In this document: one piece after another, positions 26,746 to 34,837 of the stretch
Numbering within the stretch: the stretch's first letter is position 1
Layout of the letters: each line of letters begins with the position of its first letter
Source: Escherichia coli
GTDB taxonomy: Bacteria; Pseudomonadota; Gammaproteobacteria; Enterobacterales; Enterobacteriaceae
Assembly (NCBI RefSeq): GCF_013122565.1
Contig: NZ_CP053258.1
DNA length: 64,000 nucleotides
Direction: 5' to 3' (one strand)
Translations under genes and position numbers: made by a program
The notes under the pieces: model-generated
Seen by the model: only the letters and a program-made list of their open reading frames with translations
Databases searched by the model: none
What the model was told of the DNA's origin: nothing

Positions 26746-28143
26746 ATTTTTACCCGAGTCGCTAATTTTTGCCGCAAGGTGCTAAGCCGCGAGGAAAGCG
26801 AGGCTGAACAGGCAGTCGCCCGTCCACAGGTGACGGTGATCCCGCGTGAGCAGCATGCTATTTCCCGCAAAGATATCAGTGAAAATGCCCTGAAGGTAAT
26901 GTACAGGCTCAATAAAGCGGGATACGAAGCCTGGCTGGTTGGCGGCGGCGTGCGCGACCTGTTACTTGGCAAAAAGCCGAAAGATTTTGACGTAACCACT
27001 AACGCCACGCCTGAGCAGGTGCGCAAACTGTTCCGTAACTGCCGCCTGGTGGGTCGCCGTTTCCGTCTGGCTCATGTGATGTTTGGCCCGGAGATTATCG
27101 AAGTTGCGACCTTTCGTGGACACCACGAAGGTAACGTCAGCGACCGCACGACCTCCCAACGTGGGCAAAACGGCATGTTGCTGCGCGATAACATCTTCGG
27201 CTCCATCGAAGAAGACGCCCAGCGCCGCGATTTCACTATCAACAGCCTGTATTACAGCGTAGCGGATTTTACCGTCCGTGATTACGTTGGCGGCATGAAG
27301 GATCTGAAGGACGGCGTTATCCGTCTGATTGGTAACCCGGAAACGCGCTACCGTGAAGATCCGGTACGTATGCTGCGCGCAGTACGTTTTGCCGCCAAAT
27401 TGGGTATGCGCATCAGCCCGGAAACCGCAGAACCGATCCCTCGCCTCGCTACCCTGCTGAACGATATCCCACCGGCACGCCTGTTTGAAGAATCGCTTAA
27501 ACTGCTACAAGCGGGCTACGGTTACGAAACCTATAAGCTGCTGTGTGAATATCATCTGTTCCAGCCGCTGTTCCCGACCATTACCCGCTACTTCACGGAA
27601 AATGGCGACAGCCCGATGGAGCGGATCATTGAACAGGTGCTGAAGAATACCGATACGCGTATCCATAACGATATGCGCGTGAACCCGGCGTTCCTGTTTG
27701 CCGCCATGTTCTGGTACCCACTGCTGGAGACGGCACAGAAGATCGCCCAGGAAAGCGGCCTGACCTATCACGACGCTTTCGCGCTGGCGATGAACGACGT
27801 GCTGGACGAGGCCTGCCGTTCACTGGCAATCCCGAAACGTCTGACGACGTTAACCCGCGATATCTGGCAGTTGCAGTTGCGTATGTCCCGACGTCAGGGT
27901 AAACGCGCATGGAAACTGCTGGAGCATCCTAAGTTCCGTGCGGCTTATGACCTGTTGGCCTTGCGAGCTGAAGTTGAACGTAACGCTGAATTGCAGCGTC
28001 TGGTGAAATGGTGGGGTGAGTTCCAGGTTTCCGCGCCACCAGACCAAAAAGGGATGCTCAACGAGCTGGATGAAGAGCCGTCACCGCGTCGCCGTACTCG
28101 TCGTCCACGCAAACGCGCACCGCGTCGTGAGGGTACCGCATGA
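26746..28143 (+). CDS. pcnB: Poly(A) polymerase I
   Basis: Nucleotidyltransferase family ORF ([10 protein letters not shown]); track ORF starts 26725, but E. coli pcnB is reported to initiate at a non-canonical AUU codon, giving (M)[16 protein letters not shown] at 26746 (465 codons); stop overlaps folK start. Confidence 0.85.
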
Positions 28144-28619
28144 CATTGGCGTATATTGCCATAGGCAGCAATCTGGCCTCTCCGCTGGAGCAGGTCAATG
28201 CTGCCCTTAAAGCATTAGGCGATATCCCTGAAAGCCGCATTCTTGCCGTTTCTTCGTTTTACCGCACCCCACCGCTGGGGCCGCAAGATCAACCCGATTA
28301 CCTCAACGCCGCCGTGGCGCTTGAAACTTCGCTCGCCCCGGAAGAGTTACTCAACCATACACAGCGCATAGAACTGCAACAGGGTCGTGTTCGTAAAGCT
28401 GAACGCTGGGGACCACGCACGCTGGATCTCGACATCATGCTGTTTGGTAATGAAGTGATAAATACCGAACGCCTGACCGTTCCGCACTACGATATGAAGA
28501 ATCGTGGATTTATGCTATGGCCGCTGTTTGAGATTGCACCGGAGTTGGTGTTTCCTGATGGGGAGACGTTGGCGACAAGGCTCACCAATTTGAACGCCTT
28601 ATGCCCACAACGCTGGTGA
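28140..28619 (+). CDS. folK: 2-amino-4-hydroxy-6-hydroxymethyldihydropteridine pyrophosphokinase (HPPK)
   Basis: 159-aa [30 protein letters not shown]...; start overlaps pcnB stop (ATGA); the last ~17 residues ([19 protein letters not shown]) differ from the K-12 HPPK tail as I remember it. Confidence 0.93.
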
Positions 28620-29023
28620 ACTTGCTATAGCAAAGAGTAAATTCATTCAGCGTTTTCTTTACGTTTTTTTAATATTAATTCTTTCTCAAATCTAAGCATA
28701 ATATTTAATAAAACGCATTTCATAGCTTTCGTGTTTTTGTCTGTGCGCTAACTATTCCGACAATAGATTAGTTAAAAAGCCTTCACCACCTTATTGATAC
28801 ATTAAAAGAATAACAGATGTAAAAATACAGACTTTTAAACGCCCAATTAATAAAAACATCATTCAAACAAATAATTAAAGATTATAAATACACACAATGA
28901 ATATTATTTATTTTCTCGCCCCCTTACATTCACCAGATCTATTTTTATTCCATTTGCATAAGCTTTATAATTTGCTGAGGTGACTCTTCTCACCTCTCTA
29001 TTATTTTTATAAGGACATTAAAT
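28620..29023 (+). promoter_or_regulatory. AT-rich ~400-bp upstream region of the fimbrial operon (likely promoter, candidate H-NS-silenced)
   Basis: Long, strongly A+T-rich non-coding stretch with many A/T tracts directly upstream of the fimbrial major-subunit gene; no ORF. Confidence 0.5.
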
Positions 29024-29596
29024 ATGTTAAAGAAAAGCGCTATTGCTGCGGCATTAGTTATGTTTACCAGTTCGGCCTTCGCGCTGGATGGCGGCCAGCT
29101 GGATTTCGCAGGTTTGGTGAGTGACAACACGTGTATCCTGCACGTCAACGGTGGTGCACAGGATGGACAAATTAATCTTGCAACCGCCACAACGGCTGAA
29201 GTTACAGGTGCTGGCGTAGTCAATGCAGCCAGTGTCGGCGCGAAACCTGAACCGTTCTCTATTACAGTGGATTGCTCAGCAAACACGCCTGCCGCCGCTG
29301 AAGCCAATCTGAATATGAGCTCAGTTTTCTTCAGTAACAGCCAGGGCACCCTGAATAACGATATGTCCGTAAGCCAGGCGGCAAGCGGCGTCGCTATTGC
29401 CGTTCACTATGTACCAAGCGCCGGCACTTTCGAGCAGGTCAAAATCAATGACAGCACCGATATTAAAAACCTCACGTTAACCAACGGTAAAGGGACCTGG
29501 AACTTCCAGGCATCTTACGTTAAGCAGGCAGCGTCGATTCCTGTCGTTGCCGGGTTTGTGAAAACCAACGCGGCTTATACGATCACTTACCCGTAA
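29024..29596 (+). CDS. yadN: Fimbrial major subunit (chaperone-usher pathway), yadN-position
   Basis: 190-aa ORF with signal peptide and C-terminal aromatic donor-strand motif (YTITYP); first gene of a 7-gene operon in the yadN position next to folK; symbol assigned by position and architecture, sequence divergent from K-12. Confidence 0.8.
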   Translation: MLKKSAIAAALVMFTSSAFALDGGQLDFAGLVSDNTCILHVNGGAQDGQINLATATTAEVTGAGVVNAASVGAKPEPFSITVDCSANTPAAAEANLNMSSVFFSNSQGTLNNDMSVSQAASGVAIAVHYVPSAGTFEQVKINDSTDIKNLTLTNGKGTWNFQASYVKQAASIPVVAGFVKTNAAYTITYP

Positions 29597-29658
29597 TTCA
29601 GATACAGACCAGGCAGTCGATGTCGGGCTGCCTGTATGACTTTAATAAGGACATCATT

Positions 29659-30402
29659 ATGACCAGGACGCGTCAGTTACTCCTTGCTTCACTTTTCACC
29701 TGCGCAGGTGCATTAGCCAGCTTTTCCGCCTGTGCCGATATTGTGCTTTCCGGCACGCGTATTATTTACAACGCAAGTCAGAAAGAAGTCTCCCTGCGTA
29801 TGGAAAACAAAGGCAGCCGCCCGCTGCTGGTACAAACGTGGATCGATACCGGGAGTGAAAACGCGGATCCCAGCACCATCACCGTGCCTTTTACCGTCAC
29901 GCCACCGGTCTCTCGTGTGGACGGTAAACGTGGGCAGACGGTGAAAATCGCCTGGAATACCAGCCAAACGTTGCCCGCCGATCGCGAAAGTGTTTTCTGG
30001 TTCAATGCGCTGGAAGTCCCCCCCAAAATGAGCGAGACCGAGGCTCAGGGGAAAAATATCCTGCAACTGGCGTTCCGCACCCGCATCAAGCTGTTTTATC
30101 GCCCGGCTAACCTGGTCGGCAGCGCCCCGGACGCCCCCAAACAACTGACCTGGCATCTGCAATCCTCTGGCGGGAAAGTTGTGCTTCAGGCCACTAACCC
30201 AACGCCATTCCACGTCTCTTTTAGCGGTATTAGCCTGATTTCGGGCGGAAAAAAATACGCCGTCGACGCCACGATGGTCTCCCCGAAAAGCAGCGCTGAC
30301 ATGACGGTGAAAGGTCTGAGCACAGCGCCCGCTGGCGCGACGATTGACTATATCGCCATTAACGACTTCGGCGGCGCCATTGAAGGCAAAGTGAAGCTTT
30401 GA
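29659..30402 (+). CDS. yadV: Periplasmic fimbrial chaperone (PapD-like), yadV/ecpD-position
   Basis: Track ORF 29620..30402; start set at MTRTRQLLLASLF (29659) with AAGGA SD; PapD-like chaperone features. Confidence 0.82.
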   Translation: MTRTRQLLLASLFTCAGALASFSACADIVLSGTRIIYNASQKEVSLRMENKGSRPLLVQTWIDTGSENADPSTITVPFTVTPPVSRVDGKRGQTVKIAWNTSQTLPADRESVFWFNALEVPPKMSETEAQGKNILQLAFRTRIKLFYRPANLVGSAPDAPKQLTWHLQSSGGKVVLQATNPTPFHVSFSGISLISGGKKYAVDATMVSPKSSADMTVKGLSTAPAGATIDYIAINDFGGAIEGKVKL

Positions 30403-30432
30403 CGCGCTGAATAACCACGCAGGGATTGCACA

Positions 30433-33054
30433 ATGACGACGCCTTTCAACGGCACAAAATTTCCCCTCTCTCCACTCGCTTGTCTGGTGGCGTGCAGTCT
30501 GCTGCCCTGCGCGTACAGCGCCATGGCGGCAGAGGAAGCCGTTGAATTTGATAACACCTTCCTGATGGGGGCCGGTGCCAGGAATATCGACGTCAATCGC
30601 TACAGTGATGGCAACCCCGCGTTACCTGGTCGTCACGACGTTAGTGTGTTTATCAACAATAAGCCGACCAGCAATCTGTCCATCGAGTTTATTGAAATAG
30701 CGAATAGCCGTAGCGCCCAACCCTGTATTTCTGCCAGCACCCTGCTCCAGTTGCATATTCGCCTGCCGGATAATCTCGACGATACGGCGATTTTGCAGAA
30801 ACGGGACAGTACCGCGCAGGACTGTCTTAATCTTGAGGTCGCCATTCCCCAGTCCAGCCTCACCTATAACAGTAACGATCAGCGGCTGGACATTAATGTG
30901 CCTCAGCTGTGGTTGCAAAAAACTTACGCTAACTATGTGGATCCTTCCCTGTGGGACGAAGGGATCAACGCAGCCATGTTTTCTTACACGCTGAATGGCT
31001 GGCGCAGTGAGTCGCCCAATCAAACCGCAGAAAGTACCTATGCCGGGCTGATGGGCGGCTTTAATTTATGGGGATGGCACTTCCGGTCGCACGGCAACTA
31101 TTCATGGGACAAAGAGAGTGGCGGCAGTTTCGAGTTCCAGGACAAGTACCTGCAACGTGATATCGTCAAACTGCGGTCGCAGCTGGTTGTCGGTGAAACC
31201 AACACCACGGGGGAGACCTTTGATTCCGTTCGTATTCGCGGGGTTCGTCTCTACAGCGAAAGCCGCATGCTGCCACCGACGCTCGCCTCTTACGCGCCGG
31301 TGATCCGTGGGGTCGCAAACTCCAACGCCAAAGTAACGATTACCCAGAACGGCTACAAGATTTACGAAACGACGGTGCCGCCAGGCCCCTTTGCTATCGA
31401 TGACTTATCGCCAGCCGGATTTGGTGCCGATCTCGAAGTCACGGTCACCGAATCTGACGGCTCACAGCGAACATTCACCCAGGCCTATTCATCGGTGATC
31501 CAGATGATGCGCCCCGGCGTGGGCAAATGGGACATCAGCGCGGGTGAAGTCAAAAAGGATGAGCTAAAGGACAATCCCAACCTGATACAGGGAACGTACT
31601 ACTACGGGTTAAGCAATACGTTTACCGGCTATACCGGCCTGCAAATGACCGATAACGGCTACTGGGCCGGGTTGTTAGGGCTTGGGATGAACACCTCATT
31701 GGGGGCATTTTCCCTGGATGTGACGCAGTCGCACACCGAAATTCCCAACGATAAAACCTATGAGGGCCAGAGCTACCGTATTTCGTGGAACAAATATTTT
31801 GCACCGACCGAAACGTCACTCAACATTGCGGCCTATCGCTACTCGACAAAAAACTATCTCGGCCTGAACGATGCCTTAACGCTGATTAACTCCGCTAACC
31901 ATCCTTATGATGATGGCTACAAGGGAATCGTCTCCTATGGGCGTATGAAAAACCAGTTCAGCGTCAGCCTCAACCAGACGTTAAAAAATGGCGAGCGGGA
32001 TTATGGTTCCTTCTATCTGAATGGGACCTGGACGGACTACTGGGTTACGAATGAATCACAGAGTAGTTTTGCGTTTGGTTACAGCAACGGCTTTGACTGG
32101 GCCAGCTACAGCGTCAGCCTGCAACGAACCTATGATGAAGACAATAACAAAGATGACTCTATCTATCTCAGCTTGACCATCCCGCTGGACAAACTGTTTG
32201 GCCGCGATAGCCGCGAAGGGGGCTTCAGAACGCTCAATACCAGTGTCAACAGCGATATGAAAGGCAGCTCGCAATATAACGCTAACGCCACCGGCTACAG
32301 CCAGGACAACCGCTGGAACTACAGCGTCAACACCTCCTATAACGCAATGAAAGAGACGGAGAGCCTGAAAACCATCAGTGGTTTCACCAGCTATGAGTCC
32401 CCCTGGGGAACCCTTTCCGGTTCCGTCTCCGCCAGTAGCGACCACAGTCGTCAGTATGGCGTGAGTACCGATGGCGGCTTTGTGCTACATCGCCACGGGC
32501 TCACGTTTAGCAACGATAGTTTCACCGACTCAGACACGCTGGCGCTGGTCAATGCCCCCGGCGCGAAAGGGGCGCAAATCAACTTTGGCAGCAGTACCGT
32601 GGACCGATTTGGCTACGGGGTGACCAGTGCGCTTTCTCCGTATCACGAAAACACCGTCGCCCTCAACGTAGACAACCTGGATGAAGATGTAGAGCTAAAA
32701 AGCACCAGCACCGTTGCGATCCCACGCCAGGGTGCCGTTATCTTCAGCCATTTCGACACTGACACCGGGCGTTCCGCCATTCTTAACCTGCTGCGCAGTG
32801 ATAAACAGCCCGTACCGTTTGCTTCCGATGTCACGGACAGCCGTGGGCAGTCCATCGGCACGGTTGGGCAAGGGAGCCAGGCTTTCGTTCGCGGCATTGC
32901 CGACGAAGGGGATCTGGTGGTTTCCTGGTATGAAAAAAATAGCCAGAAACAGTGTCGCATTCACTACCAGATACCGCCCTCTCCCACCATGACGGGCAAA
33001 ACTATCGTATTAAACGCCGTGCCCTGCACCCTGCAATCACAGGAGAGGAAATGA
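30433..33054 (+). CDS. htrE: Fimbrial outer membrane usher (PapC/FimD family), htrE-position
   Basis: 873-aa ORF with signal peptide, conserved usher core (RLYSESRMLPPTLASYAPVIRGVANSNAKVTITQNGYKIYETTVPPGPF) and C-terminal Cys pair. Confidence 0.88.
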   Translation: MTTPFNGTKFPLSPLACLVACSLLPCAYSAMAAEEAVEFDNTFLMGAGARNIDVNRYSDGNPALPGRHDVSVFINNKPTSNLSIEFIEIANSRSAQPCISASTLLQLHIRLPDNLDDTAILQKRDSTAQDCLNLEVAIPQSSLTYNSNDQRLDINVPQLWLQKTYANYVDPSLWDEGINAAMFSYTLNGWRSESPNQTAESTYAGLMGGFNLWGWHFRSHGNYSWDKESGGSFEFQDKYLQRDIVKLRSQLVVGETNTTGETFDSVRIRGVRLYSESRMLPPTLASYAPVIRGVANSNAKVTITQNGYKIYETTVPPGPFAIDDLSPAGFGADLEVTVTESDGSQRTFTQAYSSVIQMMRPGVGKWDISAGEVKKDELKDNPNLIQGTYYYGLSNTFTGYTGLQMTDNGYWAGLLGLGMNTSLGAFSLDVTQSHTEIPNDKTYEGQSYRISWNKYFAPTETSLNIAAYRYSTKNYLGLNDALTLINSANHPYDDGYKGIVSYGRMKNQFSVSLNQTLKNGERDYGSFYLNGTWTDYWVTNESQSSFAFGYSNGFDWASYSVSLQRTYDEDNNKDDSIYLSLTIPLDKLFGRDSREGGFRTLNTSVNSDMKGSSQYNANATGYSQDNRWNYSVNTSYNAMKETESLKTISGFTSYESPWGTLSGSVSASSDHSRQYGVSTDGGFVLHRHGLTFSNDSFTDSDTLALVNAPGAKGAQINFGSSTVDRFGYGVTSALSPYHENTVALNVDNLDEDVELKSTSTVAIPRQGAVIFSHFDTDTGRSAILNLLRSDKQPVPFASDVTDSRGQSIGTVGQGSQAFVRGIADEGDLVVSWYEKNSQKQCRIHYQIPPSPTMTGKTIVLNAVPCTLQSQERK

Positions 33055-33623
33055 GATTCTTTTTACGGTTAATCCTGTTACTGACGACGCTGCTCAATGC
33101 CTCGTGGGCGTTGGCCGTCAATATTTCGGTTAACTTTACCGCGACGATCAAAGAGACCACCTGCGCCATGACGGTGAGCGCACTCAATGGCGCGAATCTT
33201 AGCGGTGACTCGGCATCAGAGAACTACTTTCTGGATTTACCCACAATGGGGGTTTCCGATATCACCAATAAAACGTCCAAAACCGAAGCCAGCTTTAAGC
33301 TATTACCGATTAACTGTAATAACTACATCTCCAGCATGTCGATGACCATTGGCGGTAAACACAGCGGTTATACCGACACGTTGCTGGTGAATGATTCCTC
33401 GGTTACAGGAGGAGCCAGTTACATTGGCGTGGGCTTTAAACGGCTTAATGACGATGACAGCCTGCGGTTTAAGGTGGATGGAACGACGTCAATTAACTGG
33501 ACACGCAATGACATTGCCAATGGATTTGATATTACTGGAATAGTTCGCCGGACAACGAGTTCTTACAACATGATACCCGGTCTGGTTCAGACAAAAGCGA
33601 TATTCGTTTTTACTTATAACTAA
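33051..33623 (+). CDS. yadM: Fimbrial minor subunit, yadM-position
   Basis: Start MRFFLRLILLLTTLL at ATG 33051 overlapping the usher stop (ATGA), AGGAGAGG SD; 190 aa; C-terminal FVFTYN. Confidence 0.78.
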   Translation: MRFFLRLILLLTTLLNASWALAVNISVNFTATIKETTCAMTVSALNGANLSGDSASENYFLDLPTMGVSDITNKTSKTEASFKLLPINCNNYISSMSMTIGGKHSGYTDTLLVNDSSVTGGASYIGVGFKRLNDDDSLRFKVDGTTSINWTRNDIANGFDITGIVRRTTSSYNMIPGLVQTKAIFVFTYN

Positions 33624-33635
33624 CAGGGATGGTGT

Positions 33636-34232
33636 ATGAATTATCAACGCATAATTGTAGCGCTATTGTTAATCATCGGAATAAATACGCAATGCCTGGC
33701 TGGCTCCAGTTCGTTGAACGTGACGGTGAGGACAACCGTTACCGCCAGTACCTGCACAGCAGAGCTTCACAATGCGCAGGACCTGCAAGCGACAACAATT
33801 GATATTGGTGATGTCTATCTGAACGAACTTGCAAATAAGACTAAATATCAGAATTTCAGCCTGGTGTTTTCAAATTGTGAAGGCTTAGCCAAAGATCAGG
33901 CGACCGTCACACTTTCTCCGCAAACAGGCTGCGATGGTGCATCCAGTACGGGTGGCGGATTTCGCAACGCACTGGCCTCCAGCGACAATGATGCGGCAAC
34001 CGGCGTATCGATTGAAGTATGGACGACCAATCAGCCGGAAGGTCAGGGAAGTGTGCAGCTAAACTGCAAGACAAAACCGACCAGTATTGTCGATCTGACG
34101 GGCGCGTCAGGTGCGAACGTTGTCCACTGGTGGTTAAGCTCCAGAATTGTCGTCGCCGCGGATAACACTATCGCCGATGTACGTGCAGGGCAGTTCTCCA
34201 CCAACGCTGTCTTTTCAGTAACCTATGAGTAA
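33636..34232 (+). CDS. yadL: Fimbrial minor subunit, yadL-position
   Basis: 198-aa ORF with signal peptide; C-terminal FSVTYE donor-strand-like motif. Confidence 0.78.
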   Translation: MNYQRIIVALLLIIGINTQCLAGSSSLNVTVRTTVTASTCTAELHNAQDLQATTIDIGDVYLNELANKTKYQNFSLVFSNCEGLAKDQATVTLSPQTGCDGASSTGGGFRNALASSDNDAATGVSIEVWTTNQPEGQGSVQLNCKTKPTSIVDLTGASGANVVHWWLSSRIVVAADNTIADVRAGQFSTNAVFSVTYE

Positions 34233-34238
34233 ACGACG

Positions 34239-34811
34239 ATGAAATCACGTTTTCGACTGTTCGTTTCCGGCTTATGGTTTATTACAGCGGCCTGTATTGC
34301 CAACACCAATATTAATATGACCGCCAACGTTGTCAGCACCAGTTGCAAAGTCACCCTCGACAATAGCGGCAGCATTGATTTAGGCACGGTTAATTACGAC
34401 TATCTGAACACGAATACTGCCGTGGATCGCGTTTATACCGGTGGTCAGGCGTTCTACATCACCGTCAGTGACTGCGCGCAGATGGCGGGTAAAAATCCTT
34501 CCCGTCTTACGGTGAGTTTTACGCCCGTCGGGGGTACCCTCGGCGCAACTAATCAACAGGTTTTTGCCAATCAGGCAGCCGATGGCGCTAAAAACGTCGG
34601 CATCGTAATTTTATCCACCCAGGATGCGCAAAGTATTTTCAATGTGCTGGATACCCACGGCCAATCGCAAAGTATTTACCCCGTGAGCGCGGATCAGCTA
34701 GCCAATGCCACCTACCATTTTTATGCACGGATGCAGAAGATCGACCTGGCGCAAGCCGCCACCAGCGGTGTAGTGCGGGCCAGTGTGTTTGTCGGTGTTT
34801 ATTATGAATAA
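34239..34811 (+). CDS. yadK: Fimbrial minor subunit, yadK-position
   Basis: 190-aa ORF with signal peptide; C-terminal VGVYYE. Confidence 0.78.
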   Translation: MKSRFRLFVSGLWFITAACIANTNINMTANVVSTSCKVTLDNSGSIDLGTVNYDYLNTNTAVDRVYTGGQAFYITVSDCAQMAGKNPSRLTVSFTPVGGTLGATNQQVFANQAADGAKNVGIVILSTQDAQSIFNVLDTHGQSQSIYPVSADQLANATYHFYARMQKIDLAQAATSGVVRASVFVGVYYE

Positions 34812-34837
34812 CGTTTTACGTTCTCAAGGATGATGAA

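Follow-up and report, generated by a model that had tools for sequence, protein, structure and literature searches.

The closest described counterpart of the region analyzed here is the promoter region of yadN in Escherichia coli. Based on usher phylogeny and chromosomal position, the Yad fimbriae of E. coli correspond to the Sta fimbriae of Salmonella and form an ancestral, core-associated group, and position itself serves as a criterion for the assignment of fimbrial families (PMC3559732). Yad fimbriae have been linked to colonization of the bloodstream and the urinary tract and are silenced by H-NS (PMC13245861). For example, a reporter driven by ~200 bp of DNA upstream of yadN in CFT073 was up >100-fold when hns was deleted; Yad, which is described as non-phase-variable, is modulated by ArcA, temperature, and serum cues (PMC13245861). 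In K-12, the yadN/folK spacer is a listed 'promoter island' that is associated with H-NS (PMC3661553), and yadN was bound by H-NS in three ChIP data sets and up upon over-production of the anti-silencer SlyA (PMC5797941). The common yad allele, which occupies the same position as the operon described below, is both bound and repressed by H-NS (PMC13245861, PMC5797941, PMC3661553).

We analyzed a 64,000-nucleotide stretch of the E. coli contig NZ_CP053258.1 (hereafter, the window), in which the gene order is gluQ-pcnB-folK-spacer-subunit-chaperone-usher-three minor subunits-adhesin-panB-panC, with dksA also located upstream. A fimbrial operon between folK and panB is common to the window, ET201, K-12, DH1, and ABU 83972, and the locus is identified as yad because the folK-panB gene order and the operon architecture agree. 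The operon is a Yad/Sta-family chaperone-usher locus with the seven-gene architecture of this family and a usher related to HtrE. The encoded proteins are, however, only 34–60% identical to the K-12 Yad proteins (usher vs. HtrE: 60%), whereas the pcnB and panB products are 99–100% identical. At 60%, the usher falls below the 80% threshold used to call strains Yad-positive (PMC13245861), and the operon therefore represents a divergent subtype.

For the chaperone gene, 29659 (after AATAAGGACATCATT) is a more probable start than 29620, where a longer ORF begins. Between the major-subunit and chaperone genes, where fimbrial operons usually carry an intercistronic attenuator or stabilizer, there is a GC-rich stem-loop of nine pairs (29610-29634); the 69-nt stretch around it has a minimum free energy (MFE) of -16.9 kcal/mol and a z-score of -1.45, which is not significant. 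In the adhesin gene, the N-terminal (lectin) half (34800-35400) shows 70–80% DNA identity between the window and ET201, compared to 94–100% elsewhere in the operon. This most divergent part of the operon agrees with the lectin-domain diversification that has been reported for YadC.

The spacer between folK and the fimbrial operon covers 404 bp (28620-29023), from the folK stop codon (TGA, 28617-28619) to the first fimbrial ATG, and its features are listed in Table 1. Its GC-content is 27.7%, compared to 52.3% in the whole window, and no other 400-bp stretch of the 64 kb comes close to the minimum of 27.0% reached in this spacer (next lowest: 40.0%; mean: 52.4%, sd: 4.2%). On a crude ORF map of the window, it is the most AT-rich of the intergenic gaps and the third in length. 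There is no ORF longer than 29 aa, with 7–13 stop codons per frame, and the 28-aa ORF at 28897, the only small ORF open to such a comparison, is frameshifted in other E. coli copies. A tblastn comparison with 91 homologues returned nothing meaningful that would point to a decayed subunit gene in the spacer. These values agree with the first-pass annotation, which had described ~400 bp of AT-rich, non-coding DNA ahead of the major-subunit gene.

The same annotation had pointed to numerous A/T tracts. The tracts are present (12 of at least 4 nt, 3.7x the density in the remaining window), although nothing in them goes beyond base composition: shuffled spacers contain 8.7 ± 2.5 tracts, with a count of 12 reached in 14% of them, and the AA/TT dinucleotides are not helically phased. 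Hexamers resembling a -10 element occur at 5.4x the window-average density, a property shared with H-NS-covered 'promoter islands'. A scan of the spacer for consensus promoters and terminators gave no enrichment over shuffles, and a scan for ArcA direct repeats gave one match with two mismatches, which is the chance level. On the sense strand, the spacer has a skewed composition, with 73 C vs. 39 G.

Table 1 Features of the folK-fimbrial spacer and the adjoining genes in the window (promoter, terminator, and silencing elements are predictions).
Feature	Coordinates	Strand	Description
folK (HPPK)	28140..28619	+	closes the upstream pcnB-folK unit
Candidate intrinsic terminator of folK	28610..28670	+	stem-loop 28610-28653 overlapping the stop codon, then T-rich tail 28654-28670
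AT-rich imperfect palindrome	28662..28715	.	22-nt arms, 73% complementary; contains TAAGCATAA
Distal AT-rich spacer	28716..28926	.	putative H-NS nucleation and silencing platform
CATTCACC box	28927..28934	+	conserved; ~-47 relative to the predicted start of transcription
Single GATC of the spacer	28936..28939	.	not conserved in relatives
T-rich box TATTTTTATT	28940..28949	+	conserved; covers the -35 region
Predicted -10 hexamer TATAAT	28966..28971	+	no other perfect -10 hexamer on the spacer's + strand
Stem-loop/palindrome GAGGTGA-CTCTTC-TCACCTC	28977..28996	+	core stem GGTGA/TCACC
Ribosome-binding region ATAAGGACATT	29009..29023	+	Shine-Dalgarno AAGGA 29011-29015; family-conserved
First fimbrial subunit gene	29024..29596	+	YadN-like major pilin, 190 aa; Pfam Fimbrial
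Remaining operon	29659..36058	+	PapD-type chaperone, usher, three minor subunits, two-domain adhesin; neither recombinase nor regulator gene

This allele is rare in E. coli, being present in 8 of 5426 complete genomes; in most of the remaining genomes, similarity to the window ends inside folK, at ~28578. The last 17 codons of folK are unlike the K-12 type, and the left breakpoint of the allelic replacement can therefore be placed inside this gene (28578-28619). The 24 kb downstream of the locus are 99.2% identical to E. coli chromosomes. The window and Pseudocitrobacter corydidari (L011) share 94.9% DNA identity over a segment that runs from 28964 into the usher gene, at least through its first part. 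Because this identity is found despite a folK gene that is only 80% identical to that of P. corydidari, and because the distribution in E. coli is patchy, the allele appears to have been imported through homologous replacement, with a Pseudocitrobacter-like lineage as the donor, or both lineages may have drawn on a shared pool. The operon coding region (29024-36058) has a GC-content of 51.7%, compared to 42.4% in the K-12 yad operon (L003 9590-16758) and 50–54% in the flanks; we found no atypically low GC in the operon coding DNA, and only the spacer is AT-rich. The term 'xenogeneic', previously applied to this promoter region, is thus apt for the history of the allele (likeness to P. corydidari and presence in 8/5426 genomes), but not for the position of the locus, which is ancestral, or for its coding GC-content, which is ordinary.

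Differences between the window and the eight complete genomes cluster at 28770-28925, a patch of ~150 bp that is ~14% divergent, whereas the segments on both sides (28620-28769 and 28926-29023) differ by ~1%. The spacer is a mosaic.

To place the spacer among its relatives, we compared 17 loci in which the subunit gene has a relative; their sources are E. coli, E. albertii, Salmonella, Citrobacter, three Pseudocitrobacter species, [Enterobacter] lignolyticus, and metagenomes. In every case, the fimbrial locus lies directly downstream of folK, with spacers of 363–702 bp and 21–38% GC. When the last 110 bp were removed, the distal parts of 16 spacers fell into at least 10 groups that could not be aligned with each other. 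For the distal ~300 bp of the window, no homologue was found in the related loci outside the eight E. coli genomes (only AT-rich, 50-nt matches at chance level), and a plasmid collection gave no match to the distal 311 bp. What persists is thus length and composition, not sequence, which fits a silencer that reads composition. The excess of C over G on the sense strand is also shared: it was present in all 14 folK-fimbrial spacers examined (C/G 1.4–2.7), even though their distal sequences are unrelated. This skew resembles a Rho-loading (rut) signature, and one possibility is that the spacer loads Rho on read-through transcripts. The literature searched contained nothing that connects Rho with yadN, and Rho loading would be less necessary given the candidate intrinsic terminator described below.

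At the folK-proximal end, folding of 28610-28730 gave an MFE of -21.2 kcal/mol (z-score: -2.75), and only 1 of 200 shuffled sequences was equally stable. The predicted stem-loop is followed by TTTCTTTACGTTTTTTT, and the simple scan overlooked this candidate terminator because of its long loop. Based on this folding model, the first ~50 bp of the spacer probably terminate pcnB-folK transcription. In strain VE-T9 (L015 2152-3332), an IS1 element is inserted in the adjoining palindrome with a 9-bp target duplication (TAAGCATAA, 28693-28701), and ~320 bp upstream of the fimbrial ATG are intact despite this insertion.

The last ~100 bp are the only conserved part of the spacer and could be aligned in 12 sequences. 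The -10 hexamer is kept as TATAAT, TATACT, or TATGAT in 11 of these 12 sequences (TAAAAT in L023), with TTTATAAT as its context across the alignment. The predicted -35 element is weak (TTTATT, three of six matches, 16-nt spacer), which is why the consensus scan missed the conserved TATAAT. The conserved CATTCACC box may serve as an upstream promoter element or bind an activator. The core stem of the downstream stem-loop begins exactly 7 nt past the -10 hexamer, and this spacing is fixed across the sequences that carry the module. All five core pairs form in 12/12 sequences, including one G-C to A-U double change, whereas the outer stem pair varies (A-U, G-U, or U-A) and the loop is variable. 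The ribosome-binding consensus of the aligned relatives is ATAAGGAYATT, followed by ATG.

Because the conserved TATAAT is located 52 nt ahead of the ATG, transcription probably starts near 28978 and produces a 5' UTR of ~46 nt with the stem-loop at its 5' end, a prediction drawn from the alignment. A stem-loop at the 5' terminus of an mRNA is a classical stabilizing arrangement. The spacer had been called an unusually long leader, and this part of the first-pass annotation has to be revised: the conserved TATAAT suggests that probably only ~46 nt are transcribed as leader, the greater share of the 404 bp being DNA upstream of the promoter, and the first ~50 bp resemble a terminator of folK.

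The pentamer TCACC/GGTGA, which forms the core stem, occurs four times in the spacer (28783, 28930, 28979 on the minus strand, and 28991), compared to 0.35 expected, although this is a post-hoc count. Relatives of the subfamily contain 2–5 copies, with the extra distal ones located in otherwise unrelated sequence, and the K-12, ABU 83972, and Salmonella spacers contain none.

Given this anatomy, the 404 bp are likely to be the control region of a Yad/Sta-type operon that combines a terminator, H-NS-nucleating distal DNA, and a conserved promoter module, and silencing of the proximal sigma-70 promoter by H-NS is the best-supported reading in our analysis, by analogy with the common yad allele and from the pattern across related loci. 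In the proposed arrangement, the first ~50 bp would terminate pcnB-folK transcription, and the next ~260–300 bp (~27% GC, sequence-unconstrained) would nucleate H-NS filaments that occlude the promoter, so that the operon would stay cryptic until repression is lifted by an environmental cue or an anti-silencer. The promoter itself would consist of the CATTCACC box, a T-rich -35 region, and the TATAAT at 28966-71, with a start near 28978, and the ~46-nt 5' UTR would open with a 7-bp stem-loop and close with the AAGGA Shine-Dalgarno sequence. With 27.7% GC over 404 bp, the spacer lies well within the range that we used to define an AT-rich promoter region (≥200 bp at ~35% GC or below). The high-affinity H-NS nucleation 10-mer, TCGATAAATT, is not enriched in the spacer, where the scan gave one match with two mismatches (28794), a chance-level result; this motif is not required for H-NS to bind AT-rich DNA. 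The coding DNA, at 51.7% GC, offers little AT-rich DNA into which a filament could spread, so that silencing may be weaker than at the common allele or limited to the spacer. H-NS silencing of the imported allele, if it occurs, must rest on the spacer alone.

Other types of fimbrial control were weighed against H-NS silencing. The fimS element of type 1 fimbriae is likewise non-coding, a few hundred bp long, and directly upstream of the major-subunit gene, and the spacer has a size (~300–400 bp) and position that would suit an invertible promoter switch. However, the longest perfect inverted repeat with arms 150–620 bp apart comprises 9 nt of pure A/T, a length that is reached or exceeded in 28 of 60 composition-matched shuffles. 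Pfam searches of the seven operon proteins gave fimbrial, chaperone, and usher domains only and identified no recombinase gene in the operon. None is annotated between mrcB and panC in ET201, where all genes are housekeeping or fimbrial genes and the region beyond panC contains a transposase gene and rpnC (recombination-promoting nuclease) and no fimB/fimE-type recombinase. Seven complete genomes are collinear with the window in one piece, the eighth is broken only by IS1, and none is inverted; the proximal module also has the same orientation in all relatives. A fimS-type switch, which we rejected on these grounds, is extremely improbable. The pap region resembles the spacer in being long, AT-rich, upstream of a fimbrial operon, and subject to H-NS, and the single GATC of the spacer does fall within the conserved promoter-proximal module. 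A pap-type Dam methylation/Lrp switch, however, needs two GATC sites ~100 bp apart together with PapI-/PapB-type regulators. The GATC of the window is unconserved (most related spacers carry none, the others one), no papI-/papB-like ORFs or domains were found in the operon, and Yad is reported to be non-phase-variable (PMC13245861). This type of epigenetic switch was also rejected, with hardly any probability left to it. The first-pass annotation had argued against both switches from the absence of flanking inverted repeats and from the single GATC; the systematic repeat search and the locus comparison lead to the same conclusion, and its overall reading of an H-NS-type, AT-rich fimbrial promoter region is largely right.

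The remaining alternatives concern the function of individual parts of the spacer. A truly long transcribed leader (300–400 nt) with an RNA regulator acting in cis (e.g., riboswitch, attenuator, or Rho-dependent leader) would be in line with the rut-like C-over-G skew of the related spacers and with a weaker promoter-like site at 28847-28875, but we consider it very unlikely: a search of 28300-29300 on both strands gave no Rfam match even at E ≤ 1, the distal 300 bp are unconserved between lineages, the sole conserved promoter-like element is the one 52 nt from the ATG, and ~200 bp were enough for regulated promoter activity in CFT073 (PMC13245861). It is also unlikely, if less so, that the spacer is functionless beyond its proximal ~100 bp and represents a recombination scar, or drift after allelic replacement. 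The lack of a distal homologue outside the eight E. coli genomes, the clustering of substitutions at 28770-28925, and the tolerated IS1 insertion in VE-T9 all favor this explanation. On the other hand, length, low GC, and C>G skew recur at this position in ≥10 groups of unrelated sequence from five genera, which neutral drift in genomes of 50–55% GC does not predict, and no remnant of a subunit gene was detected.

The palindrome at 28977-28996 could also act as DNA or as an attenuator rather than as a stabilizing RNA structure. Its half-sites, GGTGA and TCACC, match the GTGA-N6-TCAC core of the CRP consensus; both are themselves conserved, most sequences keep 6 nt between them, and the simple scan flagged the same palindrome as terminator-like. 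We regard an operator (e.g., a CRP-like site at the start point) or an intrinsic terminator/attenuator as somewhat unlikely. The loop length varies (4 nt in L023 and longer in [E.] lignolyticus), the symmetric G-C to A-U double change alters both half-sites without loss of pairing, and a protein bound at +1 to +20 could only repress. Owing to this variable loop and the symmetric double change, a CRP-like operator at +1 is possible but would fit less well than an RNA stem-loop. An intrinsic terminator was rejected here, given that the T-tract is interrupted in the window and absent in relatives.

Returning to H-NS control, we tentatively propose a broader model, which is less certain than the control-region assignment itself. 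The distal spacer may be a 'silencing cassette' that is selected for composition (by H-NS, possibly also by Rho) and can be swapped independently of the operon, combined with a subfamily-specific promoter module of ~100 bp, whose GGTGA-N6-TCACC at the predicted +1 would be either an mRNA-stabilizing stem-loop or an operator for a regulator that reads TCACC boxes.

Comparison with P. corydidari, whose locus also lies downstream of folK, shows how the two parts of the spacer are distributed. The P. corydidari locus contains the same proximal promoter and stem-loop module as the window, whereas the distal 300 bp of the window were not found there. Pseudocitrobacter differs in having an extra tandem paralogue of the major-subunit gene with its own AT-rich spacer of 508 bp, while the window allele has one subunit gene; the module shared with the window sits between the two paralogues. 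The upstream paralogue has a well-formed predicted promoter (TTTACA-N17-TATAAC), which is also present in a Salmonella sta-type locus. Two tandem major-subunit paralogues were observed in the Pseudocitrobacter-type loci L011 (3001-4350), L012, L005, and L025, and the subunit gene of the window shows 92% DNA identity to the first gene of L011 over its 3' 524 nt and ~95% to the second.

Compared to the common yad allele, the window spacer has no detectable DNA similarity to those of K-12 and CFT073, and the K-12, ABU 83972, and Salmonella spacers lack the CATTCACC/TATAAT/GGTGA-N6-TCACC module. E. coli thus rarely carries a quite different allele at the yad locus, with its own upstream region, and screens that call Yad-positive genomes at an 80% identity threshold will miss it. 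Current understanding of fimbrial regulation is unchanged by this locus, and the main value of the analysis is a correct annotation, together with a small conserved promoter and stem-loop module now identified in a Yad/Sta subfamily and a natural example of sequence turnover in regulatory DNA with retained length and composition. The yadN promoter regions of K-12, CFT073, and EC958 share position and operon architecture with the window and likewise have no invertible element and no Dam switch, and the K-12 spacer is similar in length (369 vs. 404 bp) and GC-content (26.6 vs. 27.7%). The spacer is most likely an ordinary example of the known H-NS-type fimbrial control region, in which the composition-only conservation and the promoter module go modestly beyond what would be expected.
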